Shown here: piece after piece, positions 628-45,321 of the stretch
Position numbering within the stretch: position 1 is the first letter of the stretch
Layout of the letters: every line of letters begins with the position of its first letter
DNA from: an uncultured Bacteroidales bacterium
GTDB taxonomy: Bacteria; Bacteroidota; Bacteroidia; Bacteroidales; UBA4417
DNA length: 64,000 nt
Reading direction: 5' to 3'
Assembly: GCA_903864265.1 (NCBI GenBank)
Contig: CAIPFN010000080.1
Span: 18,150-82,149, forward strand
Translations under genes and position numbers: made by a program
Notes under the pieces: generated by a model
What the model was told of the DNA's origin: nothing
Database searches by the model: none
Seen by the model: the letters and a program-made list of their open reading frames with translations, nothing else

Positions 628-683
628 TGGAAAATGTCGGATGTGGGATGTCGGATGTGGGATGTCGGATGTGGGATGTGGAA
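628..683 (+). repeat. heptanucleotide tandem array (GGATGTS)n, about 8 units
   Basis: Direct reading gives TGTCGGA TGTGGGA alternating with an exact period of 7 and no indels. Confidence 0.95.
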
Positions 684-688
684 TCTAC

Positions 689-900
689 CCTCTTCTCCTT
701 GTCCCCCTTTCTCCTTGTCCCCTTGTCTCAAATCAATCCAATCAATCTCTTCAATCTCTTCAATCCTATCTCACACTACCCTATCTTCCAATCCATCACT
801 ATCCTCTTCTCCTTGTCCCCTTGTCTCAAATCAATCCCATCAATCTCCTCAATCTCTTCAATCCCATCTCACACTACCCTAACCTCCAATCCATCACTAT
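689..900 (+). repeat. G-poor CT/CA-rich tract made of two tandem units (689-802 and 803-900)
   Basis: Unit 2 repeats unit 1 (cctcttctccttgtcccc...ccaatccatcactat) minus a 16-nt internal duplication. It shares a 24-nt identical string (831-854) with the reverse complement of 45094-45117. Confidence 0.9.
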
Positions 901-932
901 TCACTATTCACTATTCACTTTTCACTATTCAC
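895..932 (+). repeat. heptanucleotide tandem array (CACTATT)n, 5 units
   Basis: Exact period of 7. On the minus strand it reads TGA ATAGTGA..., so the Omp28-like gene stop codon (931-929) is part of the array. Confidence 0.95.
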
Positions 933-1843
933 TGTCTTACAGCAGTTTCCGCTGCCTGCAATACTTCCTTGGTATCAATATCATAAACAAAGGCTACCAC
1001 ATGGCAGTTTTTAGGAACCATGGCATTGGGATTAAAACCGGTAAAATGAACCTGGAAAGTATTGATAACAGGAGCTGAAGAGGTATTGTCTTTCGACAGA
1101 ACCGGCGTGCCCCAGGTGCCATTCACTGCGCCGCGCATCACATGCATATGCACATAATCGAGTATATAGGGCGTGGTGCCTACCGTAGCATCGCCATTGT
1201 ACTGCGCCTGAACAATGCTGTCCTCGGTAAGCACTACCGAGAGATTTAATCCGCGGCCGGTAAGGGATTCGGGGAAACTTGTTTTTACATGCACGCACAA
1301 CTTATCATCGGCAGCACTGTATTCGGTAATCAGCTGTAAATCCATCAGAGGGGCTTCGGTCAACGCGCTCTTAACGCCATCGGCCCAGGCCGAGGGTTTG
1401 GCTACCTGCTTGTTTTCGGGATATCCCTTGCGGCACACCATGCCATTGGGATTACCGAGATTACCTACTTTAAAGAAGTCGTCCCAGGCTGTGCCTTGCG
1501 CGGTACGGAAATCGTAATTCCATACCGGGTCGCCGGCATTCACATTGGCAAACCAGCCTGCATGAACGGCTATCACTACCAATGAGTCTTTGTACTGTTC
1601 TTTCAGGTCGCGGGCAATAAGCCCGGCCCTGGGGCAATTAGGGCAGGTATGCCCGGTATAGTCTTCGAGCAGTACATGTTTAAAATGGGCCGTCACAGCC
1701 GGAAATTCCGGAACGGGGCAGGCCGCGGTATCCACCGGCGCATTGCGGATTACATAGGGGGCATCCACTTTATCGCAGGAAACAAGCAGAAACAAAGCCG
1801 CTGCTGCCAGAAGTAAGGAATTCAGATATTTTGAGTTTGTCAT
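929..1843 (-). CDS. Omp28-related outer-membrane lipoprotein, thioredoxin-like with CPNC motif
   Basis: Lipoprotein signal (LLLAAAALFLLVSC|DK). The segment LLEDYTGHTCPNCPRAG resembles the EEFTG-x-x-C-x-x-CP region of the Omp28-related family. Confidence 0.7.
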   Translation of the reverse strand: MTNSKYLNSLLLAAAALFLLVSCDKVDAPYVIRNAPVDTAACPVPEFPAVTAHFKHVLLEDYTGHTCPNCPRAGLIARDLKEQYKDSLVVIAVHAGWFANVNAGDPVWNYDFRTAQGTAWDDFFKVGNLGNPNGMVCRKGYPENKQVAKPSAWADGVKSALTEAPLMDLQLITEYSAADDKLCVHVKTSFPESLTGRGLNLSVVLTEDSIVQAQYNGDATVGTTPYILDYVHMHVMRGAVNGTWGTPVLSKDNTSSAPVINTFQVHFTGFNPNAMVPKNCHVVAFVYDIDTKEVLQAAETAVRQ

Positions 1844-1855
1844 GGAGTATTCTAT

Positions 1856-3535
1856 TTAAAAACTTGTGGTGATACTAACCGAGAAACCGTTCGAAGCCGG
1901 AACAACCCGGCAAACTCCGCCTACGCATACCACACCTGCACGCTGCTTGCCGTACGAAAGCTGTACGCGGTTTGCGTTGTTGTTATAGGCAACGGCAACA
2001 AGAGGGTAATGAAAACGGCGACCGCTGTCGTCGTTGCCATAATTCCACTGGTCGGCAAAGCTGACAAACCAGGTAGGCGCCACCGTGTATTCGAGCAGGC
2101 CCATCATCCAGTTTCCTTCATCCTGTTTGGAAAGCAAAGCCTGGGTTTCGAGGCGTAAGGCTTTGGAAGGGGTGATTTTATAGGTCATGTCGGCAATAAA
2201 AATATGGGCATGTATCATCGAAAGGCCCTGGGCATCGAGGTCGTTGGTAATAGCGTAGATGTTGTAATCCTCGTGCATATACGTGACCTGCATTTTGAAG
2301 CTTTTATTGAACTTATGCCCTATCTCTACATTCAGGTCGCGGAAATATTTGGTATCCCCAATTTTGAAAAACGGGGAGGTATAACCCAGCGTTCCCTTGA
2401 TGGTATCGCCCACGAAGTCCTTCACAATGGAGTTGATAGCCGAACAGGTAACGGCAATGTCGGTTCCGTATTTACCGCCCAGCCAGGTATTTTTCTTTAT
2501 TTTATAATTGAGCTGCCCGCTTATTCCCATTTCGCTGTTGGGTTGGGTTGCGTATGGATACACAGCAGCCAGGGTATAGGTTTGCTGTTTGGTAATGGCG
2601 GGCAGGTAGTTGATATCAAGTACTTTTTCTTCACCGGTACGTTTCGACTTGAACATCATATTGTCGAGGCGCTTGGCTTGTATGAGTATGCCCAGGCCTT
2701 TCTGGTTGTATGAAACATTCAGCAGCAGGGCTTCGCCTTTTTTATAGATGTAGTTGTTCTGTTCGTTCGGATCGTTCATTTTCTGAACGTATTCGGCTCC
2801 CAGGCCAAAATTGCCGTAGCTAAGGTTAAACCTACCGGCCCCGGAGGCTACATTTAAAGGCAGTACCAGCTCTTCCTGTTTTGCGTTGTATACCAGTTCG
2901 TTTGCTTCGTATTTGCTCACGAAACTTCCCCCCAGTTGCAGGCGCAACTTGCTGTTTTCGAGGGAAGGTATTAAGTCGTTGAGGTTTACATCGGCATCGC
3001 CACCGCGTACTATGCCCGGGCCATAGTCCCAGAAATAGCGCTGTACGCCGTAAATGCCTTTCAACTCAATACCTTTCACCGGGGTGAATTTCACCCTGAT
3101 GCCATTGAGGGCATTATCGTAACCCAGGTTATGTTCCTCGTAAGTGCGGAATATCATGCCGCTGCCAAACTGATCGTAAATATGCCCGGCCGTAACCTGG
3201 AACTGCCCGGTTTTATAGTCCACAAACCAGTAGGGAACTCCTGTGCCTTTATACCGCGGATCGTAGCCGTTTACGGGATTGAGGTAGGTTTCGTAACGCA
3301 GTCCCGCATTGAAATTACCGGAGGTATACGTTATGTTGGTCCAGCTGTTCATCAGCATTTTCTCGCCCACGGGGAAGGCCCTGATAGCCGAATCGACCAT
3401 ATAGTATTGCGCGTCGAGTTGAAAATTTCCGTTTACCTGGCTTCCAAGGGGACTGCCCTGTGCAAAAAGCAAGGCCGGACTCAGGCAAAACAGCGCAGCC
3501 ACGAAAGTTGCGAAAGAAAGTATTTTTGTTTTCAA
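1856..3535 (-). CDS. outer-membrane beta-barrel protein of unknown function (possibly DUF6029-like)
   Basis: The track ORF runs to 3721, but only the in-frame TTG at 3535 gives a signal peptide (MKTKILSFATFVAALFCLSPALLFAQ). The protein has alternating beta-strand character and ends in ...SITTSF (C-terminal Phe), typical of OM barrels. The family name is from memory and is not verified. Confidence 0.65.
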   Translation of the reverse strand: MKTKILSFATFVAALFCLSPALLFAQGSPLGSQVNGNFQLDAQYYMVDSAIRAFPVGEKMLMNSWTNITYTSGNFNAGLRYETYLNPVNGYDPRYKGTGVPYWFVDYKTGQFQVTAGHIYDQFGSGMIFRTYEEHNLGYDNALNGIRVKFTPVKGIELKGIYGVQRYFWDYGPGIVRGGDADVNLNDLIPSLENSKLRLQLGGSFVSKYEANELVYNAKQEELVLPLNVASGAGRFNLSYGNFGLGAEYVQKMNDPNEQNNYIYKKGEALLLNVSYNQKGLGILIQAKRLDNMMFKSKRTGEEKVLDINYLPAITKQQTYTLAAVYPYATQPNSEMGISGQLNYKIKKNTWLGGKYGTDIAVTCSAINSIVKDFVGDTIKGTLGYTSPFFKIGDTKYFRDLNVEIGHKFNKSFKMQVTYMHEDYNIYAITNDLDAQGLSMIHAHIFIADMTYKITPSKALRLETQALLSKQDEGNWMMGLLEYTVAPTWFVSFADQWNYGNDDSGRRFHYPLVAVAYNNNANRVQLSYGKQRAGVVCVGGVCRVVPASNGFSVSITTSF

Positions 3536-3793
3536 GTTACAGAATTTTGATTTGTGACAGGCCGAAAGCTTCGGCAAATCTACATATTTTCTTTTATAAA
3601 AAAACCTCCCGACAAATCGTAATCCGCTGATTACATTTTTTATCAGGAGGTTAAGCCGGTCTGCGGTCAAATCAGCAGGATAAACTGCTTTCTGCGCCGG
3701 GACCTGAGCGTTTACAGCCATTTAGACCGTATAAACAGATAAAAAATCCGCAGCTGAAAAGGCTGATTAAAGCGCTGAATAGTTCAGGTAGTT

Positions 3794-4324
3794 TTAATGT
3801 GTAGCTGCGGCTTCTGCATTCACTTTGCGCACCTCGTTGATCAGGTCAAGCTCGGCGCCTTCGCTGAAACTGGTATGCTGCCAGACGATTTCGCCCTTTC
3901 CGTTCACGATAAAGGTATGGGGAACGGCATTTACATTCATGGCGCGCTTGAAGTCGGCATTCTGGTCGAGCAGTATGTCGTAATTCCAGCCCTTGCCGTT
4001 TACCAGGGTTTTAACCTGTGCCGTGGAGCGGGAGTCGTCGATGGAAACGGCATACACCTTTACGCCGGTTTCTTTCTGCCAGTCGTCGTACACGTCGGCA
4101 ATGGCGGTGAGTTCCTTCACGCAGGGTTTGCACCAGGTGGCCCAGAAACTGATAATAAAGGGTTTGCCGTCGTTAAAGAGCTTGTCGGTATTCACTTTTG
4201 AGCCTTTCATGTCGGTGACCGTCACATTGGGCAGTTTAAAAAGTACTTTGGCCGTTGCCGGTTCCTGGGCCAGCAGGCTTGTTCCGGATACGATGAGCAA
4301 TGCAACAAGAAGGAGGGTTTTCAT
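3794..4324 (-). CDS. TlpA/ResA-like thiol:disulfide oxidoreductase (thioredoxin fold)
   Basis: Signal peptide plus the FWATWCKPCVKE active-site CxxC motif. Confidence 0.85.
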   Translation of the reverse strand: MKTLLLVALLIVSGTSLLAQEPATAKVLFKLPNVTVTDMKGSKVNTDKLFNDGKPFIISFWATWCKPCVKELTAIADVYDDWQKETGVKVYAVSIDDSRSTAQVKTLVNGKGWNYDILLDQNADFKRAMNVNAVPHTFIVNGKGEIVWQHTSFSEGAELDLINEVRKVNAEAAATH

Positions 4325-4353
4325 ATTTGAAGCGTAGGGTTAAGGTTTCTGAA

Positions 4354-5340
4354 TTATTTCTGGGGGCAATAAACTTCGAGAATTTTACTTTCCATAAGAG
4401 GAACAATACGGATGTTTTCCATAATGGCAGGGATAAGCATCACTTCACCGGCTTTCAGGGATTCCTGTCCGCCTTCGTATTCTACAGTGCATTTGCCTTC
4501 GGCGCATTGCAGTATCACGAACGAATCGAGGCCGCTGTAGTCTTTGATTACAGGAACATCGAAATGGATCAGGCTGGTATTGAAATAGGTGCTTTCGACT
4601 ACCGGAACGGTTTTGTTGATTTCGTGCGGGTACTCCGACTTATACACATCCTGTTTAGCGAAATCGAGAGCAGCCAGGGCCAGGTCGGTATGCAGTTCCC
4701 GGGAGACGCCATGGGCATCCACGCGGTCGAAATCGTAGATGCGGTAGGTAAGGTCGCTGCTTTGCTGAATTTCGAAGATCAGCAGGCCGGGGCCAATAGC
4801 ATGCACCCTGCCGGCGGGAATATAATAAACATCGCCTTTCTGAACCTTTTCATAGTTCATGATTTCTTTGATGCTTCCGTTACGGAGATGTGAAAGGTAC
4901 AAAGGAGCCGACATGGCCTGGTTAAAGCCGCTGATCAGTTCGGCACCGGGTTCGGCAGCAGCCACATACCACATTTCGGTTTTACCCGAATCGTCGTGCC
5001 TGCTTTGGGCGAGCGTATCGTCGGGATGTACCTGTATGGAAAGCCAGTCGCTGGCATTCAGTATCTTGATCAGCAAAGGGAATTGGGTGCCGTATTTTTC
5101 GAAAACAGCTTCACCCACCAGGTCGCCCATATAAATATCGATCAGCTCATCCAGCTGGTTTTCGGCCAGGAAGCCGTTATTCACCACGCTGATTTCATCA
5201 CCGTATCCTGACAGCACCCAGGCTTCGCCGCAATTGGCAAGCGGGGCGTAGTCCATTCCGAAAACCGTATGTATTTTATCGCCTCCCCAGATTTTTTCTT
5301 TGAAAACGGGGTTGAATTTCAGGGGATATAATTCGTTCAT
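4354..5340 (-). CDS. manA: type I mannose-6-phosphate isomerase
   Basis: N-terminus LYPLKFNPVFKEKIWGG and the metal-site context SIQVHPDD are typical of class I PMI in Bacteroidota. Confidence 0.85.
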   Translation of the reverse strand: MNELYPLKFNPVFKEKIWGGDKIHTVFGMDYAPLANCGEAWVLSGYGDEISVVNNGFLAENQLDELIDIYMGDLVGEAVFEKYGTQFPLLIKILNASDWLSIQVHPDDTLAQSRHDDSGKTEMWYVAAAEPGAELISGFNQAMSAPLYLSHLRNGSIKEIMNYEKVQKGDVYYIPAGRVHAIGPGLLIFEIQQSSDLTYRIYDFDRVDAHGVSRELHTDLALAALDFAKQDVYKSEYPHEINKTVPVVESTYFNTSLIHFDVPVIKDYSGLDSFVILQCAEGKCTVEYEGGQESLKAGEVMLIPAIMENIRIVPLMESKILEVYCPQK

Positions 5341-5686
5341 GGATTTTTATTTTTAGATGTAAGGGAAGGGAGAAGTGCGAAGGGGGAAAATATGGATTGA
5401 CTTTTATGTTCAGTTTCAGGTTAAACTCTCCGTCAGGCCTGCAGCTAAAAAGGCTGATTGCTGTATTTGGTATTCAGGCTGTTCTTTATTTGAATTCCGG
5501 AGTCGAATCATTCACAACACACTACTCACCACTCTCTCTGTCAGTCATTTAAAATAAACCACAGTTGCATTCCAACTCCCAAAAGTACAATATTATCCAT
5601 TTCCGGCAACGGTGGAGGAGCAATCCTTCGAAGGAAAAATTTCGAAGCCCGGAAAGGAGTACTTTTGCAGGTTCAAAATAAACCCT

Positions 5687-6544
5687 ATGAGCGGGAACCC
5701 CGAGAAACCTTTACGCAAACCCGGCTGGCTGAAAATCAGCCTTCCGAAGGGCGATAACTTCCTTCAGGTGAAAGGCATACTCGAAGTAAAGGGTTTGCAT
5801 ACTATCTGCTCCAGCGGCAAATGCCCCAATATGGGCGAATGCTGGAATGCCGGCACGGCTACCTTTATGATCCTTGGCGACATCTGCACCCGGAGCTGTA
5901 AATTCTGCGCCACCCGTACCGGGAAACCTTTACCTGTGGATGTGGACGAGCCGGGGAAAATTGCCGATTCGGTCAGGCTTCTGAACCTGAAACATGTGGT
6001 TGTCACTTCCGTTGACCGGGATGATTTACCCGATGGAGGAGCAGCCATCTGGGCAGAAACAGTCAGGAAAGTGAAAGAAATGAACCCCGGTATTACCATT
6101 GAAACCCTTGTTCCCGACTTTTGCGGAAATGCGGCTCAGCTTCAGCAGCTTATTGATGCTGCCCCGGATATTATTTCGCATAACCTCGAAACGGTCCGCC
6201 GCCTGACACCCCGGGTACGCAGCGCCGCTCAGTATGATCGCAGCCTGGAAGTGCTGCGGCAAATTGCTGCTTCGGGTCTGAAAGCCAAATCGGGCATCAT
6301 GCTTGGCCTGGGCGAAACCGAAGCCGAAGTGCTGGAAACTATGGATGATTTGCGGAAGGTGAACTGTGGTATTCTTACCATAGGGCAGTACCTGCAACCT
6401 TCGAAAGCACACCTTGAAGTGGCTGAATATATACACCCTGAGCAGTTTGAAAAATACAGGCTAGCCGGGTTGGAGAAAGGATTCAGGCATGTGGAAAGCA
6501 AACCTCTGGTAAGGAGTAGTTATCATGCAGAGAAACATGTTTGA
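5687..6544 (+). CDS. lipA: lipoyl synthase
   Basis: Radical-SAM CxxxCxxC (CTRSCKFC) plus the auxiliary-cluster Cys region (CPNMGEC). The ATG at 5687 gives a normal length of about 285 aa. The track start at 5612 is a GTG extension. Confidence 0.95.
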   Translation: MSGNPEKPLRKPGWLKISLPKGDNFLQVKGILEVKGLHTICSSGKCPNMGECWNAGTATFMILGDICTRSCKFCATRTGKPLPVDVDEPGKIADSVRLLNLKHVVVTSVDRDDLPDGGAAIWAETVRKVKEMNPGITIETLVPDFCGNAAQLQQLIDAAPDIISHNLETVRRLTPRVRSAAQYDRSLEVLRQIAASGLKAKSGIMLGLGETEAEVLETMDDLRKVNCGILTIGQYLQPSKAHLEVAEYIHPEQFEKYRLAGLEKGFRHVESKPLVRSSYHAEKHV

Positions 6545-6590
6545 TGTGGGATGTGGAATGTCGGATGTCGGATGTATGATTTCGGATGTT
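6542..6590 (+). repeat. heptanucleotide array (GGATGTS)n, 7 units
   Basis: TGATGTG GGATGTG GAATGTC GGATGTC GGATGTA TGATTTC GGATGTT. The first three bases are the lipA TGA stop codon. Confidence 0.95.
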
Positions 6591-6707
6591 TCATGAAATT
6601 AGATACTCCCGATAAATATGATGATCAATATTATAGCTTTTCTGCTTGTTCAACCAGACGATTCCTTGGTACGTTCTCATTCTTCCTGCCGCTAACCAAA
6701 ATAATAA

Positions 6708-7430
6708 ATGAAAGTAATTTTCAAGGATCTGGGTTTAATGCCCTACCAGCAAGCCTGGGATTACCAGGAGAAACTTCTCGGTGAGATCATTCACCAGAAA
6801 CTGGAATTTCAGAAACGTCCTTCCATTCAACAGGAATTCACTGATAACTACCTGCTGTTTGTTGAGCATCCGCATGTTTTCACCCTGGGAAAAAGCGGCT
6901 CGGAGGCGAACCTGCTGGCGAACCTGGTTCAGCTACAGGCTAAAAATGCCGAATTTATCACCACTAACCGGGGAGGTGATATCACCTATCACGGTCCGGG
7001 ACAAATTGTGGGTTACCCCATACTGAACCTTGATTATTTTGCGAAAGGTATACGCGACTATATTGATAAACTGGAAGAAGCCATTATCCTTTGCCTGAAT
7101 CATTATGGAATTGAAGGTTCCCGGTTCCCGGGCGCCACGGGGGTATGGCTCGACACCGCGGTGGCCGCGAAAACGCGGAAAATCTGTGCCATGGGGGTTC
7201 GGGTAAGCCGCGGAGTAAGCATGCATGGCTTTGCTTTTAATGTTAACACCGATTTGTCGTACTTTAGCCTCATCAATCCCTGTGGCTTCAACGATAAAAA
7301 GGTAACTTCGCTGCAGGCTGAAACAGGCCGTGAAATGGATACAGAAGAAGTTAAAGCGATATTGAAAGAAAAAATCTCGGAGGTTTTCGGAATGGAATTA
7401 GACTTATCCACCCCAAAAACACACCATTAA
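6708..7430 (+). CDS. lipB: lipoyl(octanoyl) transferase
   Basis: Motifs HPHVFTLGKSG, RGGDITYHGPGQ and KICAMGVRV (catalytic Cys/Lys region) are present. Confidence 0.95.
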   Translation: MKVIFKDLGLMPYQQAWDYQEKLLGEIIHQKLEFQKRPSIQQEFTDNYLLFVEHPHVFTLGKSGSEANLLANLVQLQAKNAEFITTNRGGDITYHGPGQIVGYPILNLDYFAKGIRDYIDKLEEAIILCLNHYGIEGSRFPGATGVWLDTAVAAKTRKICAMGVRVSRGVSMHGFAFNVNTDLSYFSLINPCGFNDKKVTSLQAETGREMDTEEVKAILKEKISEVFGMELDLSTPKTHH

Positions 7431-7442
7431 TCTTTATTCCTA

Positions 7443-7515
7443 CATCACACATCCGAAATCCGAAATCCGAAATCCGACATCCGACATCCGACATCCGACA
7501 TCCCACATCCGACAT
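7443..7515 (-). repeat. heptanucleotide array (GGATGTS / GGATTTC)n in inverted orientation, 10 units
   Basis: The plus strand reads CATCACA CATCCGA (AATCCGA)x3 (CATCCGA)x3 CATCCCA CATCCGA with an exact period of 7. It starts 13 nt after the lipB stop and ends 18 nt before the LOG start. Confidence 0.95.
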
Positions 7516-7532
7516 TAATAAAATCACACAAC

Positions 7533-9501: not shown

Positions 9502-9801
9502 TCAGGCTTTTATACGTCTCGTCAGATCTCTGGCTCCGTGATGTACCATTAAAATTTGCAATTCTTCTTTACTGACAATTTGATATATGATCCGATAATT
9601 CCCTTCAACAATTTCCCGGATTTTAGGGTCATTTATTTCTTCAACAATTTTACCAATTTCGATTTGCTTCTTCAAAGCTTCAGTTCGGGACCGGATACGC
9701 TCCACTTGAAATTTGGCATATCGTTTCGAATCAAAAGAGATATAATCATAAATCTCTTTCAAATCATTCCTGGCAGCCGCTAACCAGACTATTCGAACCA
9801 T
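9502..9801 (-). CDS. type II toxin, RelE/ParE family
   Basis: 99 aa. The pattern IVWLAAARNDLKEIYDYI...YRIIYQI...ILMVHHGARD is typical of ParE/RelE plasmid-stabilisation toxins. It overlaps the upstream small ORF by 13 nt. Confidence 0.8.
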   Translation of the reverse strand: MVRIVWLAAARNDLKEIYDYISFDSKRYAKFQVERIRSRTEALKKQIEIGKIVEEINDPKIREIVEGNYRIIYQIVSKEELQILMVHHGARDLTRRIKA

Positions 9802-9971
9802 TCTCCCATTTCTGCTTTAAGTTCTTCTTCTGTAATAGTTTCACCAATTTTTGATTGCTCAATTCTATTCTCCAATTTCTCAACAAAAATCAACCTATCA
9901 ATGAGTTCATCGATCGACATTTCATCCGGAAATTGCTCAATGTGCTTTTTTAGCTTTTCTTTGGTTATCAT
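9789..9971 (-). CDS. putative antitoxin (small acidic addiction-module component)
   Basis: A 60-aa acidic ORF lies immediately upstream of the toxin gene and overlaps it, which is classical antitoxin-toxin order. Confidence 0.65.
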   Translation of the reverse strand: MITKEKLKKHIEQFPDEMSIDELIDRLIFVEKLENRIEQSKIGETITEEELKAEMGEWFE

Positions 9972-10116
9972 TGTTCAATAATATAAAGCTAAGGTACAGG
10001 TTTTAAACTGGTTTTTCTTAAAAATCAGGATTCACTAATTTGTTATTTCGGATCCATCTTGTCAATCAGCAGAATATCTGCAAAAAGAAATTGAGGTTTC
10101 ATAAGTAACCTCTTAA

Positions 10117-10158
10117 CATCCCACATCTGACATCCCACATCTGACATCCCACATCCTA
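10117..10158 (-). repeat. heptanucleotide array (GGATGTG/GGATGTC-type), 6 units
   Basis: The plus strand reads CATCCCA CATCTGA x3. The last unit, CATCCTA, contains the TAG stop (10158-10156) of the dCMP deaminase gene. Confidence 0.95.
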
Positions 10159-22126: not shown

Positions 22127-22135
22127 CCTTGAGTA

Positions 22136-24369: not shown

Positions 24370-24398
24370 GTTCCGGGTTCCGGAGTTCCGGGTTCCGG
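24370..24398 (-). repeat. heptanucleotide array (CCGGAAC)n, 4 units, in the sufB-sufC spacer
   Basis: The plus strand reads GTTCCGG GTTCCGG A GTTCCGG GTTCCGG. It is the reverse complement of the CCGGAAC module at 44682-44709. Confidence 0.9.
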
Positions 24399-24440
24399 CA
24401 ATTGCAGTCATGCCCTTTAAGGCTAATTTCTTATTTAGTA

Positions 24441-24520
24441 TCCAACATCCGACATCCAACATCCAACATCGCAGATCAAACTTCGCAGATCCGACATCCG
24501 ACATCGCAGATCCGACATCA
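24441..24520 (-). repeat. heptanucleotide array (GGATGTY / GATCTGC variants), 11 units, directly after the sufB stop
   Basis: Minus strand: TAA TGA TGTCGGA TCTGCGA TGTCGGA TGTCGGA TCTGCGA AGTTTGA TCTGCGA TGTTGGA TGTTGGA TGTCGGA TGTTGGA. The period is exactly 7 throughout. Confidence 0.95.
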
Positions 24521-25969
24521 TTAACCCACGCTTCCCTCGAGGCTGATGGCTAAAAGCTTTTGTGCTTCAACGGCAAATTCCATTGGTAAATGCATCAGTA
24601 CTTCCTTGGCATATCCATTCACGATCAGGCCTATGGCGCTTTCGGAACTGATACCGCGTTGCTTGCAATAGAAAAGCTGGTCGTCCGAAATTTTGGAGGT
24701 GGTAGCTTCGTGTTCAATGATGGAGGTATGGTTTTCGGCTTTGATATACGGATAGGTGTGAGCCCCGCATTTATCGCCCAGCAGCAGCGAATCGCACTGG
24801 GAGAAATTACGGGCATTTTCAGCCCTCTTGATCACCTTAACAAGCCCCCGGTAGCTGTTGTTGCTTTGCCCGGCCGAAATGCCTTTTGAAATAATGGTGC
24901 TTTTGGTATTCTTGCCCAGGTGTATCATTTTCGAACCGGTGTCGGCCTGCTGGAAATTGTTGGTTACCGCCACCGAATAAAATTCGCCCACCGAATTATC
25001 ACCCATCAGCACCACGCTGGGATATTTCCAGGTGATTGCCGATCCGGTTTCCACCTGGGTCCAGGATATTTTGGAGTGACTTCCCTTACAGATACCTCGT
25101 TTTGTAACAAAGTTATAAATACCGCCTTCGCCTTTTTTATTGCCGGGGTACCAGTTTTGAACGGTGCTGTATTTAACTTCGGCATCCTTCATGGCTACAA
25201 TCTCCACGATGGCGGCATGCAGCTGGTTTTCGTCACGCATAGGAGCCGTACATCCTTCCATATAGCTCACATAAGCACCTTCGTCGGCTACAATCAGGGT
25301 ACGTTCGAACTGACCGGTATTTGCCGCATTGATGCGGAAATAGGTCGATAATTCAACCGGGCAGCGCACTCCTTTGGGGATATAACAGAACGAGCCATCG
25401 CTGAAAACAGCGGAATTGAGTGCGGCAAAGAAGTTATCGTTGCTTGGCACCACGCTGCCCATATATTGTTTAACCAGTTCCGGGTGATTCTGTACCGCAT
25501 CGCTGAAGGAACAAAAAATCACTCCATATTTTGAAAGCACATCCGTAAAAGTAGTTTTGACCGATACGCTGTCGATTACTGCATCAACGGCTACCCCGCT
25601 CAGTTTTTTCTGCTCCTCGAGCGATATGCCCAGCTTATTGAAGGTCTCAATCAGTTCAGGATCCACTTCATCAAGGCTGCTGAGTTCTTTTTTACGTTTA
25701 GGAGCGGCATAATATATAATATCCTGGTACCTGATAGGCGGGTGATGAAGATGGGCCCAGGAAGGCTCGGTAAGCGTAAGCCAGTGGCGATAAGCGCTGA
25801 GCCTGAACTCAAGCATCCAGCCCGGCTCATTCTTTTTGGCCGATATAAACCTCACCGTATCCTCACTCAGCCCCACCAGGGCCATATCCATCTCGATGTC
25901 GGTATAAAAGCCATACTTGTAATCGCTGTTGGTTACTTCTTCCAGTATATTATTCTGATCTTTTTCCAT
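24521..25969 (-). CDS. sufB: Fe-S cluster assembly scaffold SufB
   Basis: 482 aa with highly conserved SufB blocks ([41 protein letters not shown]). Confidence 0.97.
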
Positions 25970-38304: not shown

Positions 38305-38321
38305 AGGTATTGAAGCGGGAA

Positions 38322-39545: not shown

Positions 39546-39784
39546 AATGAAAACGCTTAGGGTTGCTGCAAAAATACTGTATTATACTTAGTATGGGATA
39601 AAATATCATTTAATAAAAGAGCTATGACCCGGGTCCCGGGTGCCCTTTTCGCCTCCGGGGTTCCTGCTGAAAATTCAAATTTACCATTTGGATTTGGGGA
39701 TTTGACCCCAGGGAAGATTATCCTCCGGAGATCAGCATGGCCCTCCTTTCACCCAGGAGGTGATTTAATCAGATTAGGAAGGTT

Positions 39785-40507
39785 CTACTTCAGGATTACC
39801 CAGTTATTCAGCGTATCGGAACTTACAAATGTATCGCCGCTGCACATGAGGGGATTTGCATCCCTGACAGCCTTTGGAATTATCAATTCCTCGCGATTAC
39901 CAACACCGCGGTTTTGATATTGGGTAAAAACGGCATCGGTAAGTACATCGAAATAGGATACCATTCTTCCCTGCCGGGTCGGATCGTTCACAATGACTGA
40001 AATATCCGACATGGTTTGTGATCCTATATGCGTCCCCAACTGAGTGCCTGCCGTTACCTTTTCGTCAATAGTATATTGTTTTAAAGTTTGGATATGAAAT
40101 ATGGAAAACCGGAAAGCCGGATACTGATCGGAGTCCATCTCGATTTTAGTCCCTGCCCATTCCTCTTCAACGCGGGTGATTTTGCCGGTAACTGGTGCAT
40201 AGATTTTTACAGTAGTCCAATCCAGGCTGCTTTTAGGCTCAAAATAATGTTTCATGCTGCGGCAGTGTTCAAAAGCATCGGAATAGTCATGCCCCTCCGA
40301 TGACCTGAATCTGGAAACGCGGTAAATTTTATCGAGATCTATATAGTTCGTCGAAACGAACTTCGGGATGCCATCCTTATCAATATCCCATATATCAGTA
40401 TTAACCGGAGGACTATTCTCGCTGTCCTTATGGCAGGCGGTTAGGCTGAGCATAAATGGAATGAAAGCCAGCAGGAAAATCCCTGAAACAAGACTGAGCT
40501 TTTTCAT
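39785..40507 (-). CDS. hypothetical lipoprotein
   Basis: The ATG at 40507 gives MKKLSLVSGIFLLAFIPFMLSLTAC|HKD. The track start at 40534 is a TTG. Confidence 0.6.
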   Translation of the reverse strand: MKKLSLVSGIFLLAFIPFMLSLTACHKDSENSPPVNTDIWDIDKDGIPKFVSTNYIDLDKIYRVSRFRSSEGHDYSDAFEHCRSMKHYFEPKSSLDWTTVKIYAPVTGKITRVEEEWAGTKIEMDSDQYPAFRFSIFHIQTLKQYTIDEKVTAGTQLGTHIGSQTMSDISVIVNDPTRQGRMVSYFDVLTDAVFTQYQNRGVGNREELIIPKAVRDANPLMCSGDTFVSSDTLNNWVILK

Positions 40508-40784
40508 TTTGGTAAGGTTTTTACTTTTTGACAAAACTGTTACTTGCCGGGTTCCGTTGACTCTTTTGGTTTTCGCGAAGGATTCCCTTTCGGCGCGGAG
40601 TTAAGAAGGATAGAAAAAGCCAAAGAACCAACTCGGTATTATGGAATTCCCTGTCTATAAAGTTAATACAATTTGGGAAGAAATCAAAGAGGTATCGGGG
40701 AATGTTTTTAAGAGAGAAGTTTAAGCTGATAACCGGTGCCGGCACCATTTACAGTAAAACGGGGAAAGCAGGAAAGAATGATTT

Positions 40785-41000
40785 GTGAAAATGTTTGAAA
40801 CAGATGATTATAACAGGTTCAGGCGTGCCGGCAGGCAGCCTGTAGAGCTTTGGCTCAAAAAGGTTATGGCTCAAAAGTTAAAAACGATTCATCAAAACCC
40901 GATAGTGGAAGACCTGGTATTTAGAGCAGAAGATTATGTCCATAGCAGCGCAATTGAGTATGCGGGCGTGAAAGGAATATTGTATATATTTGACGAATAA
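40785..41000 (+). pseudogene. C-terminal remnant of a RAYT / IS200-like (Y1) transposase
   Basis: QPVELWLKKVMAQKLKTIHQNPIVEDLVFRAEDYVHSSAIEYAG matches the conserved C-terminal block (...ELW....QK..YIH.NPV...V...EDY.YSSA..Y) of REP-associated tyrosine transposase-like proteins. The HUH/Tyr catalytic part is missing, and only frame-shifted traces lie upstream (about 40700-40784). Confidence 0.65.
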
Positions 41001-41101
41001 TAATGAAAGGGGCCGGGAGGCACGGATTACAGATCCGCAACAGCTGTGGGAGAAACAGAAACCTGGGCGCAATGAAATAGTTATTTAACTCCTATATAGA
41101 T

Positions 41102-41818
41102 ATGAAGTACATTTTAGTGATTATTTTGTTTTTTATTGCCTTTGAAGGGCAAACGCAGGAAGCCCAGGTTCACAAGAAGAGGATGAACATCAGGAGGCAC
41201 TTCAAAAATTTGTCGGTTCAGCAGATCAATGATCTGAAAAACGGAGTTTTGATTGTGAGGCTCTATACGAAAAACAGTACAATTTCGGCGTTAAGGAAAA
41301 ATGGAAACAATAAGCAGGCTCATGAAATTGAACGGAAACAATTCGAAACGAATCAGGAAATAGTAAATGCTTTCAGGCAAGGTTTTGACTTTTGCCCGTT
41401 ATACTTTTTTTACAGTGATTATTCGGCAAATGTTATTGAGCAACAGTTTGGCAGGTTTCCTTTTTTAAATGACAGTCTGGTACCGGATTCAACCATCATA
41501 TTAAAAACCCGGAATTTTCTGACTGCCGATTTTGGCACAATCGACCAGGATACAAGCATGCGTTTCGATGGTTATTATTATGATTACGGAGAACATGGAT
41601 TAGAGAAAAGATCAAAATATTACGGGGGTTCCAATATGGGATTCGGGGCTTTGGTTTTGCGCAGCGACAAATTGGTTCAGCTTCACAAGCCTTTTCCGTA
41701 CTATGTCAGAACCTATAAATCGTTGCCATTCTCAGCCAACTCAAAAAATGTTGTAAAGAAAATGAATCACAAACTCGAGCGGTTTTATAAACGAAAGCAA
41801 CGGAAAACAATAGGATAA
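41102..41818 (+). CDS. hypothetical secreted protein
   Basis: Signal peptide (MKYILVIILFFIAFEGQTQ). It is basic and A+T-rich, and I recognise no family. Confidence 0.55.
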   Translation: MKYILVIILFFIAFEGQTQEAQVHKKRMNIRRHFKNLSVQQINDLKNGVLIVRLYTKNSTISALRKNGNNKQAHEIERKQFETNQEIVNAFRQGFDFCPLYFFYSDYSANVIEQQFGRFPFLNDSLVPDSTIILKTRNFLTADFGTIDQDTSMRFDGYYYDYGEHGLEKRSKYYGGSNMGFGALVLRSDKLVQLHKPFPYYVRTYKSLPFSANSKNVVKKMNHKLERFYKRKQRKTIG

Positions 41819-42093
41819 ATCATTTGAACCTGTAGGTGCGGATTGCGTCTTTACGAATCGATCTCAACAGCAAACCATTGATAATCTGTGCTGGTACCAT
41901 TTACCGTGCAACAGTGAAAGCAGCATAAAGTGGGAAGTAGAATAGTTTGAAGCAGAAGCCGGAAACAGGTTCTGGCAAGCCGTAAACCAGCCTGTGGAGC
42001 TCTGAAGCCATGCCGTTATTCAAAAAACTAAATAGTATTCCTTCATTTCCCGGTGCAGGCTTGCCTCTTTAGGTTGCCTGCCCTCCCCTTTGC

Positions 42094-43734
42094 TTATTTC
42101 CCTGCCTTAATCAGCGGTATACCAATGGTGCCATTGGGTTCCTGTATATGGATCAGGCTACTGATGGTAGGGGCAATATCTTCGACATACACCTCGGTAT
42201 TGGATTCGCCGGCTTTAATATTCCAGCCATAAAAAATCAGGGGTACATGGGTGTCATAATCGAAAGCGGTACCGTGCGAAGTTCCGGCATAATATCCGCC
42301 AGTAAGATATCCTATGGTGAGATCAAATACCAGGTCGCCCGAGCGATATGGATTAAAGCCGTTTAACGCGAAGGTGTTCATGCTGCGGGTAGGCATTTTC
42401 GAATTAAAATCTTCTTTGGATGAGATCATATTCATCTGAGGAAACGAATTTCTCAGGTAACTAATCAGAACGGTATTCAGCACATGCAGGTCCAGCTTTT
42501 TGTTTTCCAGTATCGTATGGTTTAGATAGATCTGGTTATCCTCAACAGTTTCAATAATATCGCCGAAACCAAAATGCCTGCTGCAATATGTTTTAAGAGA
42601 ATCGGCCACCACTTTGCTGTCGAGGTTGCCTGTCGGCAGATGGTTTTCCTTCAGGTAAGCGGCATTGGGTTTCACGGCATGGTCGGCAGTAAGGAAAAGC
42701 AGGTAGTTCCCTTTTCCCACGCTATTATCCAGTGTTTGGAGCAGTAAGGCGATCTGTTTATCGAGCCTTACATAGGTATCCATCACTTCCACCGAATTAG
42801 GTCCAAAAGCATGGCCTACATAATCGGTCGACGAAAATGAAACGGCCAGCATATCGGTATACTGCCCTTGTCCCGGCTTTTCGTTTTTGATCAGTTCCGT
42901 TACAAATCCGGCCAGCAGGTCATTTCCAAAAGGCGTGGTCCGTATCAGTTCGAGGCGGGTGGCCGCATCTAGTTTTTCGAATGAATGTGGGAAAGTGGTT
43001 GTGCCTTCTTTAAAAACATCCACTTCTCCGGCCCCTTTGTCGGGCATGGAAGTGGTATAATCCGATTCGGGCAGGGATAAGGGCCATCCGTTGGACATCA
43101 GTTTGGACGGTTCCTTCCGGCTGTTGAATTGGCTAACCCACCCGGGCAAGGTTTTGGTGTAATAGGACGATGTGATAAAATTCCCCGATTTCCCGTCGTA
43201 CCAGTATGCGGCATTGGCCATGTGCCCGCCGGGCAGTATAGCGGCCCTGTCCTTGATGGACACCGAGAAAACCCTCGACAGGCCGTTATCCGACATGCGC
43301 AGTTCGTCGCCTATGGTCGAAGCCAGCAGCCTGTCGGGCGACATCTGCCCTGAAGCGTTTTCGGCGCCTATGGTTTGGTGCGTGGAATCACTGGTGCAGT
43401 AAACCGTTTTTTTAAGGGTTTTATCGTACCAATCGTTCGATATGATGCCATGGAAATAAGGCGTGGAACCCGTATAAATACTCGTATGCCCCGGACCTGT
43501 ATAAGTTGGAATGTAATTATACTGTGCGTAGGTAAAATTCATGCCTTCTTTCATCAGCCGTTTAAAACCATTTTCCGAATACTGATCATAATAGCGGTAC
43601 AGGTAGTCAAAACGCATCTGGTCAACCACAATACCCACCACCAGTTTAGGTTTCAGCTGTACCTTTTTGTCCTGAGCCATCATAATCCGGGAGCCCAGTA
43701 CCAGACAAATAATCAATAAGGCGATACGTTTCAT
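42094..43734 (-). CDS. pafA: alkaline phosphatase, PafA family (nucleotide pyrophosphatase/phosphodiesterase fold)
   Basis: 546 aa. The motifs VVGIVVDQMRFDYLYRY, PTYTGPGHTSIYTG (catalytic Thr region) and HGIISNDWYD match Bacteroidota PafA. Confidence 0.85.
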   Translation of the reverse strand: MKRIALLIICLVLGSRIMMAQDKKVQLKPKLVVGIVVDQMRFDYLYRYYDQYSENGFKRLMKEGMNFTYAQYNYIPTYTGPGHTSIYTGSTPYFHGIISNDWYDKTLKKTVYCTSDSTHQTIGAENASGQMSPDRLLASTIGDELRMSDNGLSRVFSVSIKDRAAILPGGHMANAAYWYDGKSGNFITSSYYTKTLPGWVSQFNSRKEPSKLMSNGWPLSLPESDYTTSMPDKGAGEVDVFKEGTTTFPHSFEKLDAATRLELIRTTPFGNDLLAGFVTELIKNEKPGQGQYTDMLAVSFSSTDYVGHAFGPNSVEVMDTYVRLDKQIALLLQTLDNSVGKGNYLLFLTADHAVKPNAAYLKENHLPTGNLDSKVVADSLKTYCSRHFGFGDIIETVEDNQIYLNHTILENKKLDLHVLNTVLISYLRNSFPQMNMISSKEDFNSKMPTRSMNTFALNGFNPYRSGDLVFDLTIGYLTGGYYAGTSHGTAFDYDTHVPLIFYGWNIKAGESNTEVYVEDIAPTISSLIHIQEPNGTIGIPLIKAGK

Positions 43735-43752
43735 GCTATAAGGTTTTATTGA

Positions 43753-44559
43753 TTATTTCCAGGCTTTCACTACCAGCCCGGTTCCGGTTTTATGGGTCAG
43801 GGTGGCATCGAAATAATTCAATACCAGACAAAGTGGGAAGGTGATGATGTAATAAAAAGGCAGAATAATAAAAAGGAGTTTCGTTTTACCCAGTGCCAGT
43901 ATAGGGTATTTCATCGAGAGGCGCCAGCTTAATTGCCCGGGTTTACCATACTGGTAGCGGGCTTCGGTGCGGCTGAAGCCGGCAAGCCGGAGTTTCTCCT
44001 GTATTTCGCTGATGTTGTACCCGTCGCGCACATGTTCGTCGATAAACGATTCTTCCTCGTGTTCGTGAACATCGCTGCCGCCCTGGTCCGAAGGGGTCGA
44101 AATCAGCACCATGCCGCCGGGTTGAAGGGAAGCATAAAAATTACGGAATACGGCAACGTCCTCCAGTATATGTTCCATCACATCCACCGAGAGGATGAGG
44201 TTATAAGCCGAAGCATCCGTAAAGGCCGTCAGGTCGGCATTGGCAAAGCTTACATTTTTCCTGCCTATGCGGCTGAAAAAGGCGTTGCAGTCAGCAATCT
44301 GTTCGTCTTTTACATCCACGCCCCTGATTTTCCAATCCGGATGTTTGGATGACATATAGAAATCGTATTGTCCGAAACCCGAGCCTGCATCCAGGATGGA
44401 AGCGTTTTTGGGTGCCGACAGGGCCCATTGTTTCACTTCGCGCCTCACATGCCACGAACGCAGCAGGAGTAAATCGAGCAGGCGGTAAAACACTTTTCTT
44501 AAAAACGGAGTGCTGTTGAAAACACTGCCCAGCGAACGTTTGATAGGATCGTACTGCAT
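43753..44559 (-). CDS. class I SAM-dependent methyltransferase with C-terminal membrane segment
   Basis: SAM motif I ILDAGSGFGQY and a hydrophobic C-terminal region. It lies 18 nt upstream of pafA. Confidence 0.75.
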   Translation of the reverse strand: MQYDPIKRSLGSVFNSTPFLRKVFYRLLDLLLLRSWHVRREVKQWALSAPKNASILDAGSGFGQYDFYMSSKHPDWKIRGVDVKDEQIADCNAFFSRIGRKNVSFANADLTAFTDASAYNLILSVDVMEHILEDVAVFRNFYASLQPGGMVLISTPSDQGGSDVHEHEEESFIDEHVRDGYNISEIQEKLRLAGFSRTEARYQYGKPGQLSWRLSMKYPILALGKTKLLFIILPFYYIITFPLCLVLNYFDATLTHKTGTGLVVKAWK

Positions 44560-44611
44560 ATTGAATTCAGGAGGTAACTATGTGAAACGGGAAATGCTTG
44601 CCTTTTGATAA

Positions 44612-44709
44612 TGTGGGATGTGGGATGTTTGATGTGGGATGTGGGAACCCGGCACCTGGCACTTGGAACCTGGCACTTGGTACCCGGAACCCGGAACCCG
44701 GAACCCGGA
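44612..44709 (+). repeat. 14 contiguous heptamers: (TGTGGGA)x5 fused in phase to (ACCYGGN)x9 ending in (ACCCGGA)x4
   Basis: Direct count from 44612 shows the period-7 register is unbroken across the switch of motif family at 44646/44647. Confidence 0.95.
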
Positions 44710-44723
44710 ACATCTTCTTCTTT

Positions 44724-45062
44724 CTAGCCTTTGAGCAGGTTGTCGATATTTTCGATATAATCGAGGGAATCGTCAATAAAAAAATCGAGCTCGGGGATGG
44801 ATCGCACCTGGTTGTGGATACGGTTGCCCAGTTTAAGCCGGATCTCTTTCCGGTGTTCTTTAATCAGGGCCAGTAACTCCGGCTTAGGGGTTTTCCCGAA
44901 AAGGCTGATATAAACTTTAGCCAGGAAAAGGTCGGGGGAGATGTGTACCTTGGTAACCGTAATCATATTGCCCGTGAATACATCGCGGCCCATGGCCTGG
45001 AATATTTCGCCCATATCCTTCTGGAGCAGTCGTTCTATTTTTTGCTGACGTGTTGTTTGCAT
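44724..45062 (-). CDS. rbfA: ribosome-binding factor A
   Basis: MQTTRQQKIERLLQKDMGEIF...ITVTKVHISPDLFLAKVYISLF is a canonical RbfA N-terminus. The track ORF start at 45137 runs into the repeat tract and is rejected. Confidence 0.9.
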   Translation of the reverse strand: MQTTRQQKIERLLQKDMGEIFQAMGRDVFTGNMITVTKVHISPDLFLAKVYISLFGKTPKPELLALIKEHRKEIRLKLGNRIHNQVRSIPELDFFIDDSLDYIENIDNLLKG

Positions 45063-45090
45063 GGCGCAAAGGTAAGGATTTATTGGAATA

Positions 45091-45200
45091 GGTGATTGAG
45101 GAGATTGATGGGATTGAGGAGATTGAGGGGGCGACAAGGGGACAAGGGGAGATTGATGGGATTGATGCGATTGAGGAGATTGATGGAGACAAGGTGAGGA
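45091..45200 (-). repeat. C-poor (plus strand) GATTGAKGR / GGGACAAGG low-complexity tract, homologous to 689-900 in reverse orientation
   Basis: The reverse complement contains ccccttgtccccttgtc and tcaatcccatcaatctcctcaatc. The latter is a 24-nt identity with 831-854. Confidence 0.9.
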
Positions 45201-45272
45201 TTGATGGATTTGAAGGGAGATTGCAATGTATTATACGGCATGACGGTTATCGATTTCATCGTCTGATTATTC

Positions 45273-45321
45273 CACATCCCACATCATACATCCCACATCA
45301 TACATCCGACATCCTAGATCT
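45273..45321 (-). repeat. heptanucleotide array (GGATGTG/GGATGTA-type), 6-7 units, right after the GT2 stop codon
   Basis: Minus strand: TAG GAGATC TAGGATG TCGGATG TATGATG TGGGATG TATGATG TGGGATG TGG. Confidence 0.95.

Follow-up and report, generated by a model that had tools for sequence, protein, structure and literature searches.

We describe seven arrays of a heptanucleotide repeat, (GGATGTS)n, in a 64,000-nt stretch of DNA from an uncultured Bacteroidales bacterium (assembly GCA_903864265.1, contig CAIPFN010000080.1, positions 18,150 to 82,149 of the forward strand). We refer to this whole stretch as the window, and number positions from its first letter. The reading we favor, with a probability of about 0.55, is that gene junctions receive these arrays, that replication slippage changes their length, that they are transcribed, and that their pattern of strand and position reflects a filter of what an mRNA tolerates rather than a dedicated function. 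GGATGTS is the preferred unit of this Bacteroidales-like lineage. Because Rehm et al. 2015 (PMC4692102) and MacGregor 2015 (PMC4679880) have already published the pattern, the arrays add a new unit and a new lineage to a described kind of stop-adjacent 7-nt simple sequence repeat (SSR), akin to the long simple sequence repeats (LSSR) and to the short tandemly repeated repetitive (STRR) sequences of cyanobacteria.

Heptamer arrays in exact register, four of seven beginning at stop codons

Array copy numbers and coordinates (Table 1) are those of the rows reported by Tandem Repeats Finder (TRF), and an independent period scan of our own serves as a second method. In the window TRF finds seven GGATGTS arrays, each of period 7 and free of indels (0%), as well as three companion heptamer arrays. 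The period scan finds only arrays of period 7 and one of period 9, every one of them intergenic, and it finds no tandem array in 30 Markov shuffles of the sequence. The motif GGATGTS occurs 35 times in the window, with 13.8 +/- 3.5 expected. Arrays 1, 4 and 7 are 14-nt higher-order repeats in which two heptamers alternate, with matches of 100%, 100% and 96% according to TRF. A first-pass annotation of the window, made from its letters before any database search, had listed the seven arrays and their three companions and described the period as exactly 7 with essentially no indels; both methods agree with it, in places and in register.

Four of the seven arrays (at lipA, dCMP deaminase, sufB and a GT2 glycosyltransferase gene) run in sense and begin 0-8 nt from the stop codon. 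At lipA, a TGATGTG unit takes its first three bases from the TGA (6542-6544); the final lipA codons (cATGTTTGA) are already in register. The dCMP-deaminase TAG (10156-10158) shares one base with a GGATGTG unit, the first of array 4. The sufB TAA (24521-24523) is followed by one base and then by GATGTCG, and at the GT2 gene the first clean unit lies 8 nt further on from the TAG (45323-45325). Under a null in which each array is placed uniformly within its own spacer and its strand is random, the probability that at least 4/7 arrays are in sense and within -3 to +8 nt of a stop is 2.3e-4. The first-pass annotation had called this abutment striking at the same four genes, and the null gives it reason to. 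Two further remarks of that annotation also hold: the arrays at 7443 and 44612 are antisense to their neighbors, and the companion (CACTATT)n array contains the stop of the Omp28-like gene (TGA, 929-931).

For the two antisense arrays, the distance to the next ATG downstream is 17 nt for array 3 (7438-7515), which precedes the LOG-family gene (LOG), and 52 nt for array 6 (44611-44646), which precedes a methyltransferase gene. Array 3 takes up 73-78 nt of the 102-nt lipB-LOG spacer, and also lies only 7-12 nt past the lipB stop. Array 1 is in sense without abutting a stop; the nearest one upstream is 177 nt away. The G-rich strand is the plus strand in three arrays and the minus strand in four, despite a cumulative GC skew that rises throughout the window. 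We therefore reject replication strand as the cause of array orientation in the window; array orientation tracks gene direction.

A terminator-like hairpin (10112-10093) directly follows array 4, which is the sole array so followed, and we reject intrinsic terminators associated with arrays, as 14 are observed and 13.5 expected from shuffling. The idea that the stop codon is a degenerate "unit 0" of the array fits lipA, dCMP deaminase and some loci of other phyla only. In most loci with 1-10 nt between stop and array, the intervening bases are unrelated to the unit and A/T-rich.

Strand and position of heptamer arrays in other phyla

Rehm et al. 2015 (PMC4692102) describe dispersed 7-nt repeats, GGGAATC in Xanthomonas and GGGGA(C/T)T in Nostoc PCC 7120, about 90% of them intergenic. 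In sense, these repeats lie within 50 bp of the stop codon of the nearest upstream open reading frame (ORF) or overlap it; in antisense, they lie a short way 5' of an ORF. Few of them fall between divergent genes, most are transcribed, they are associated with housekeeping genes, and the paper identifies no function for them.

In a scan of one genome per species for four tandem copies of GATGTNN, we find at least 120 loci, and we took the taxonomy from 80 of these. Bacteroidota account for 29/80 (including Saprospiraceae, Chitinophagaceae, Prevotella and Flavobacteriaceae), Verrucomicrobiota/Lentisphaerae for 11/80, Planctomycetota for 8/80, Acidobacteriota for 7/80, Actinomycetota for 6/80, Proteobacteria for 5/80, Desulfobacterota for 4/80 and other groups for 10/80. 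The free positions of GATGTNN are very diverse among the loci listed. Viral contigs carry 116 loci with four copies of GATGTNN, 65 with TGTAGNN, at least 120 with GTGATNN and at least 120 with GTTAGNN. We reject GATGT as a core favored across phyla, given that the same-composition controls TGTAG, GTGAT and GTTAG are about as common or commoner. Since the free positions are diverse and the control cores about as common or commoner, what is widespread is the 7-nt array as such.

Sense and antisense counts are based on 120 of the at least 120 genome loci, with an upstream ORF of at least 100 aa, and the figures that follow hold among these listed loci. The upstream stop is overlapped by the array or at most 10 nt away from it in 30/52 sense cases and in 3/44 antisense cases (Fisher p = 8.5e-8). 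With all arrays drawn with the G-rich strand on top, their 5' ends face a stop at 0-10 nt in 20 cases and a start in 10, and their 3' ends face a stop at that distance in 3 cases and a start in 2. Between tandem genes, sense arrays lie a median of 5 nt from the upstream stop and 87.5 nt from the next start, and antisense arrays a median of 16 nt from the start and 123 nt from the stop. Divergent contexts are rare (7/105 of the arrays that have a gene on either side). When the motif is left free, stop-abutting heptamer arrays have more G than C on the sense strand in 57 cases versus 14 (p = 2.7e-7). In Bacteroidota loci totalling 494 kb that were not selected for arrays, the 5' end of the G-rich strand is nearer a gene in 9/11 arrays. 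These results suggest that the rule of strand and position seen in the Xanthomonas and Nostoc repeats is general across phyla.

This cross-phylum polarity is the part of our results that merits experimental follow-up, and cultured isolates with such arrays exist for that. The questions that heptamer arrays pose are why 7 nt, why one unit per lineage, and why stop codons are hugged on one strand.

The same junctions in relatives

The closest metagenome match to LipB has 82% identity, and array turnover is judged here from relatives at roughly genus level, which we designate by L numbers. In L132 (LipA 86% identical; JGI 3300038331), an array of about 100 nt starts from the same lipA TGA, with other units in another order. 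In the sufB-sufC spacer, the arrays of the window and of relatives with 98% identical SufC begin at the same sufB TAA and in sense. That spacer is 187 nt long in the window (array 5, then (CCGGAAC)4), 449 nt in L627 (JGI 3300010965; heptamers followed by C-rich repeats of period 8) and 807 nt in L631 (ENA ERZ18648440), where period-8 C-rich repeats of about 230 nt follow about 78 heptamer units. Of the more distant relatives, L133 and L134 (84% LipA identity) carry no array after lipA or dCMP deaminase and no GGATGTS array at lipB-LOG, and L133 keeps the same dCMP-deaminase TAG without the array. The lipB-LOG spacer measures 3-6 nt in L540, L541, L543 and L622 versus 102 nt in the window. Two relatives have other arrays at this junction: a sense (CGATGTA)n in L623, and in L133 (7741-7844) a (TAACGAT/TAACTGA)n array just 5' of the LOG start, like the TAACTGA repeats of MacGregor 2015 (PMC4679880). 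L620 and L622 differ by one unit in a (GGGRCGA)n array after lipA.

Copy-number variation, which the first-pass annotation had proposed to look for, is thus seen between relatives, both in the three spacer lengths at sufB-sufC and in the single unit that separates L620 from L622. Based on the comparisons at lipA, sufB-sufC and lipB-LOG, arrays are gained at junctions, are kept for roughly genus-level time and change fast in length and unit order, and the unit family differs from lineage to lineage.

Repeats of this type invite the suspicion of an assembly or sequencing artefact. Short-read assemblers break at the arrays, and several contigs of relatives end inside the sufB-sufC array (those of L628, L629, L630 and L635 start within it). 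The first-pass annotation had named absence from independent assemblies as a sign of artefact; instead, assemblies made independently, by different pipelines and from different samples, have arrays at these same junctions (JGI 3300038331, with L132 and L630; JGI 3300010965, with L627; ENA ERZ18648440, with L631). The genomes of cultured isolates, namely Flavobacterium sp. HBTb2-11-1, Foetidibacter luteolus and Gilvimarinus gilvus, also carry such arrays. We regard an artefact as next to impossible. The practical consequence is a different one: the arrays break short-read assemblies and yield spurious repeat "proteins".

An example of such a protein is found in L631, where a gene caller places a 257-aa protein without Pfam match across the sufB-sufC array. 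This array (1694-2500; also in L634) has no stop in any sense frame for 773 nt. After the open stretch there are stops in all three frames (TTAACTAATTAG), the last of which ends 16 nt before the sufC ATG. A "ribosome relay", in which ribosomes re-initiate at the AUGs of the array and translate through the stop-free array to the next gene, fits L631. It does not fit the sufB-sufC spacer of the window, where a TGA lies within the array and stops occur about 100 nt ahead of sufC.

A broader proposal is that heptamer arrays are active RNA elements at coding-region boundaries across phyla, of which GGATGTS would be the Bacteroidales version. Such elements, G/U-rich at 0-10 nt past a stop or C/A-rich shortly ahead of a start, might work in one of two modes, as spacers between cistrons that manage ribosome release, re-initiation and Rho access, or as platforms for a protein that binds single-stranded RNA with a 7-nt footprint. 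The long stop-free stretch of L631 that is closed by stops in three frames fits an active role at the boundary without demonstrating it, and we consider this proposal unlikely.

Relatives also show hairpins at these junctions. Relatives without a GGATGTS array have a conserved hairpin element in the lipA-lipB spacer (6871-7014 in L133; upstream of lipB in L540, L541, L543, L544 and L625), the arms of which are built from 8-nt repeats (CCACGGAG, ACACAGAG and others). In L623, a single lipB-LOG spacer (1941-2092) combines two arrays, (CGATGTA/CGATTTA)n in sense and, after it, (AATCGTA)n in inverted orientation, which together could form a hairpin. Inverted array pairs akin to this one are found in L009, L024, L028, L041 and L129.

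A proposed tolerance filter on transcribed arrays

In the explanation we favor, arrays would arrive at junctions as new DNA, by insertion or copying, and sometimes as mosaics with other 7-9-nt modules. Replication slippage would then lengthen, shorten and homogenise them by steps of one whole unit or two. Because slippage moves in such steps, the 7-nt register would stay exact despite the fast drift in length and unit order. Exact register, variation by whole or two-unit steps and length differences at orthologous sites together read as the signature of slippage. Growth in one direction, a "conveyor belt" with units added next to the gene and decaying distally, is rejected: the first two and the last two units score alike (6.23 and 6.23 of 7). 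Both flanks of the arrays have an equal, faint residual similarity, which also counts against polar growth.

The first-pass annotation had suggested that neutral slippage-prone DNA expands until it meets coding constraint. This is mechanically insufficient, because slippage adds units inside the array and cannot shift the array to the stop or consume the flanking DNA; the lipB-LOG array sits where relatives have 3-6 nt.

The filter itself would act on RNA. The arrays would be transcribed as 3' untranslated region (UTR) or intercistronic RNA. For array 5 we take transcription as almost certain from its place inside the compact suf operon, where the adjoining spacers are only 29 and 9 nt long. 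The G/U-rich strand would be unfit near starts because of an AUG in each unit and of self-pairing; it would be purged just upstream of starts and survive only beside an upstream stop. The C/A-rich strand, being unstructured, would be tolerated and maybe even favorable just upstream of starts. As naked RNA directly after a stop it would be selected against, because it resembles a Rho loading site.

We folded the array RNAs with an energy model that includes G-quadruplexes (G4). G-strand array RNAs have predicted energies of -1.8 to -27.5 kcal/mol, with z from -3.2 to 0.06, and form imperfect hairpins of G-C and G.U pairs, with an AUG in every unit. C-strand array RNAs are predicted to be structure-free (0 to -2.6 kcal/mol, z = +1.5).

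Several points weigh against this explanation. The filter covers strand and side, and only partly the abutment at 0-10 nt from the stop, which may reflect tiny ancestral spacers (such as the 3-6 nt at lipB-LOG) or spacers full of regulatory sequence. The persistence of the lipA and sufB arrays across roughly genus-level divergence (86% LipA identity) could equally be the result of weak positive selection. One unit at seven loci requires copy-and-paste or gene conversion, and we found no mechanism for either in this analysis. Among the listed loci, convergent contexts (n = 22) have no overall polarity, 11 versus 11, and the signal comes mainly from tandem genes. Finally, the excess of G over C on the sense strand of stop-abutting arrays is partly trivial, because stop triplets contain no C, and it is weaker, 18 versus 7 (p = 0.043), without units that bear stop triplets on either strand.

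RNA elements and non-B structures

The arrays may instead be functional elements of 3'-UTR or intercistronic RNA, which we think rather improbable. In one version, their G/U-rich RNA would be a platform for a protein that covers about 7 nt of single-stranded RNA, whether of cold-shock, S1 or KH type or CsrA-like and binding GGA. In the other, a semi-structured block would keep 3' exonucleases away from the upstream coding region or slow down the ribosome as it terminates. Such a role would agree with sense arrays 0-10 nt after stops in many phyla, with the stop arrays of lipA and sufB being kept in relatives, with one unit family at seven loci, and with the imperfect hairpins of the G-strand RNAs, two of which have z below -2.6. 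GGAUGU is the 3' half of the consensus RUACARGGAUGU obtained for CsrA by systematic evolution of ligands by exponential enrichment (SELEX); against such a binder, CsrA is not known to be typical of Bacteroidota. Liang, Rudd and Deutscher reportedly found in 2015 that repetitive extragenic palindromic (REP) elements stall ribosomes if they lie no more than about 15 nt from a stop codon. MacGregor 2015 (PMC4679880) discusses possible binding of heptamer repeats by cold-shock proteins (Csp), S1 or CsrA.

Against the functional reading, unit sequences, numbers and even families differ among close relatives at one junction, and many unrelated heptamers are placed alike, which is hard to reconcile with a single sequence-specific binder. 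L133 and L134, at 84% LipA identity, do without the lipA, lipB-LOG and dCMP-deaminase arrays of the window, and 2/7 arrays are antisense. Across the whole window there is no Rfam match at gathering score, including to the CsrB/Rsm-type GGA-repeat small RNAs, and Pfam annotation of the 64 kb gives no RNA-binding protein gene.

A structural role at the level of DNA or RNA, in which the G-rich strand would form a G-quadruplex or opposed arrays in adjacent spacers would pair at long range around lipB or rbfA (and could thus serve RNase III as a substrate), seems to us highly improbable. Tandem (GGATGTG)n can be read as GGGATGT, that is G3N4, the architecture of the G4-forming GGGAATC of Rehm et al. 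2015 (PMC4692102). The energy model predicts a G4 for (GGAUGUG)8, with consecutive GGATGTG units, and marginally for array 6 (-2.0 kcal/mol), and a PIF1-like helicase gene is present in the window. However, G4-aware folding predicts none for 6/7 arrays and none for GGAUGUC, which has runs of GG only, and it does not support the two-tetrad G-quadruplexes that the first-pass annotation had considered. Alternation of C and G units leaves fewer than four closely spaced G3 tracts, and many arrays of relatives (CGATGTA, TGATGTC) have no G run at all. The GGATGTS arrays lack the run of at least three G in each unit and the preference for four units of G4-forming GGGNATC repeats, with copy numbers of 5-11 rather than four.

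As for pairing, arrays 2 and 3, which flank lipB 847 nt apart, are 81% complementary over 59 nt (predicted duplex -79.9 kcal/mol), and arrays 6 and 7, which flank rbfA, are 91% complementary over 34 nt (predicted duplex -56.8 kcal/mol). Inverted pairs are expected wherever a stop-proximal sense array and a start-proximal antisense array occupy consecutive spacers, and some relatives lack one or both partner arrays. The complementary pairs around lipB and rbfA are most simply a by-product of arrays placed in this way in adjacent spacers.

Composite loci and possible dispersal

Some GGATGTS arrays are part of larger composites, of which we find two types. In type 1, a GGATGTS array ending in GGGATGTGGAAT is followed by modules of CCTTGTCC and CAATCTCYT. 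The two instances, 628-893 (+) and 45090-45321 (-), align with 73% column identity and have their modules in the same order. In type 2, a GGATGTS array is followed by a CCGGAAC array, in equal order on the G-rich strand (24370-24520 and 44611-44711). Because each of the two types recurs with equal module order, the sequences point to copying of composite segments between junctions.

We consider it quite unlikely that the whole family is a mosaic dispersed by mobility or recombination and copied between junctions, in the manner of REP elements, of bacterial interspersed mosaic elements (BIME) or of miniature inverted-repeat transposable elements (MITE). Apart from the two recurrent composites, what would speak for such a mosaic is the segment gained at a junction of 3-6 nt in relatives, with CATTAAT on both of its sides, and the presence in the window of a REP-like hairpin family. 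However, our reading of the array loci in the window finds no conserved termini or terminal inverted repeats at array ends, and Pfam annotation of the 64 kb gives no transposase gene, including any like the REP-associated tyrosine transposases (RAYT). The arrays of relatives at the same junctions differ as they would by slippage in place, and the CATTAAT repeat may be chance, ACAT being part of the unit.

The CATTAAT copies lie at 7424-7430 and 7513-7519, around the array-3 segment that relatives lack. They could be a target-site duplication, microhomology or chance. The hairpin family is found at 62265-63158, between the PIF1-like helicase gene and an M28 peptidase gene, as a 101-nt unit repeated 8.8 times in tandem. 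Each unit opens with GTGTCTG(T/C)ACAC (10 matches, 0.24 expected) and folds into a long hairpin. A solo copy of 65 nt (555-620; -31.6 kcal/mol, z = -3.8) lies directly upstream of array 1. The family has no Rfam match and looks like a REP- or MITE-type element.

Relation to described repeats

We compared the GGATGTS arrays with six classes of bacterial repeats. They have the features of bacterial heptanucleotide SSRs: head-to-tail 7-nt units, one unit shared by many intergenic loci, variation in unit number, and polarity relative to stops and starts. With the repeats of Rehm et al. 2015 (PMC4692102) they share dispersed intergenic 7-nt units, stop/start polarity, rarity between divergent genes, unit-number variation and the association with housekeeping genes. 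In that study, unit number differs among related species at the same junction, with a preference for four units, and the repeats form G4. The GGATGTS arrays differ in having GG, not GGG or GGGG, in half of their units, in a Bacteroidales-like host, in 5-11 units (up to about 78 in a relative) without a preference for four, in the lack of a predicted G4 for most arrays, and in being joined to 7-9-nt modules in composites.

MacGregor 2015 (PMC4679880) reports TAACTGA repeats and "other heptamer direct repeats" in Beggiatoaceae, in cyanobacteria and in five Bacteroidetes (Gramella, Aequorivita, Flexibacter, Paludibacter and Elizabethkingia), the other heptamers being found in the spacers that hold TAACTGA. 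These repeats are absent from close relatives at the same junction, and contigs break in them. They are alike to the GGATGTS arrays in being intergenic heptamers in Bacteroidetes, patchy among relatives and prone to contig breaks. TAACTGA repeats, however, place stops in three frames and lie forward, mostly a few nt 5' of starts, whereas GGATGTS units are stop-free and follow stops; as both unit and position differ, the GGATGTS arrays do not belong to the TAACTGA repeats. The first-pass annotation knew of no equivalent in Bacteroidota. That statement goes too far, because TAACTGA and other heptamers had been reported in five Bacteroidetes. Our searches of full-text literature give no paper beyond MacGregor 2015 that ties heptamer repeats to Bacteroidota. 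The window thus adds a clean case from a phylum with one paper on such repeats, with relatives that show gain, loss and four-fold length change.

The LSSR with units of 5-11 nt, surveyed by Mrazek et al. 2007 and known to us as summarised in PMC4679880 and PMC4692102, are commonest as heptanucleotides and occur in free-living bacteria with large genomes; they are proposed to originate by polymerase slippage. Going by these summaries, the survey has neither the GGATGTS unit, nor this lineage, nor a rule of strand or position.

The first-pass annotation had compared the arrays to the STRR sequences of heterocystous cyanobacteria. These have been noted since 1990, and the units of STRR1-3 are CCCCAGT, TTGGTCA and CAACAGT. 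The comparison is apt in that both are dispersed intergenic arrays of a few preferred heptamers, often at 3' gene ends or between cistrons, with different arrays adjoining in some cases. Phylum and unit sequences differ, and to these STRR units GGATGTS has no sequence relationship, so that the arrays are not members of STRR1-3. A report on STRR in Calothrix PCC 7601 is cited by Rehm et al. 2015 (PMC4692102).

Two more classes have a partial likeness. The first may be compared in structure: like BIMEs, our composites are mosaics of short modules in extragenic space, at 3' gene ends or between cistrons, and lineage-specific. BIMEs are transcribed enterobacterial mosaics of REP elements, which are imperfect palindromes of about 35 nt mobilised by RAYT transposases; GGATGTS units, unlike them, are non-palindromic 7-mers in head-to-tail order, although the G strands of the arrays fold into imperfect hairpins, and the window has no RAYT. 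The second class is that of the contingency SSRs of phase variation in host-adapted pathogens, which mostly have units of 1-5 nt, sit in promoters or at the 5' end of the coding region of virulence or surface genes, and switch expression. These are also slippage-prone and variable in unit number between strains. The GGATGTS arrays, in contrast, follow the stops of housekeeping genes (lipA, sufB, dCMP deaminase) and of GT2, and do not fit the class.

Features of the window and neighboring genes

In Table 1, we report all arrays and companion modules. Pfam identifies the flanking genes as lipA, lipB, a LOG-family gene, dCMP deaminase, sufB/C/D/S/E, rbfA, a GT2 glycosyltransferase and an Omp28-like gene, the names that the first-pass annotation had given where it named them. 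Other genes of the window encode type IX secretion system (T9SS) sorting domains, C25 peptidase domains and a TonB-dependent receptor, a content that looks typical of Bacteroidota. Among close homologues of LipA and SufC, the few with a source name are proteins of Bacteroidales or Bacteroidota metagenome-assembled genomes.

Table 1. Heptamer arrays and associated modules of the window, with the corresponding Tandem Repeats Finder (TRF) rows.
Feature	Span	Strand	TRF	Context
Array 1, (GGATGTS)n, C and G units strictly alternating	628..683	+	634-681, 6.9 copies; period 14 at 100% match	177 nt 3' of DLH-family gene stop (450); directly after hairpin element 555-620
Array 2	6542..6590	+	6543-6589, 6.7 copies	sense, 3' of lipA
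Array 3 (G-rich strand minus)	7438..7515	-	7438-7515, 11.1 copies	antisense to lipB and LOG
Array 4	10116..10158	-	10116-10156, 5.9 copies	sense, 3' of dCMP deaminase
Array 5	24440..24520	-	whole span 24440-24519 given as period 21	sense, sufB-sufC spacer inside suf operon
Array 5, period-7 rows	24440-24470 and 24489-24519	-	4.4 copies each	
Array 6 (G-rich strand plus)	44611..44646	+	5.1 copies	antisense to rbfA and methyltransferase gene
Array 7	45272..45321	-	45272-45314, 6.1 copies	sense, 3' of GT2
Companion (CCGGAAC)4	24370..24398	-	unit GTTCCGG, row with 8% indels	downstream of array 5, 36 nt 5' of sufC ATG
Companion (CCGGAAC-like)9.7	44644..44711	+	unit GGAACCC	fused to array 6, 12 nt from rbfA stop
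(AATAGTG)5.7, in Omp28 sense	894..933	-	unit TCACTAT	contains Omp28 TGA (929-931)
C-rich 8- and 9-nt modules (CCTTGTCC, CAATCTCYT), including a 98-nt duplication	688..893	+		after array 1
C-rich modules as at 688..893	45090..45223	-		after array 7; repeat family D5

The window also includes a ParE-family toxin gene (9502..9801, minus strand) with a 60-aa ORF, a putative antitoxin, directly upstream (9789..9971; whole region 9502-9971). The relative L133 carries the same pair of ParE toxin and putative antitoxin.

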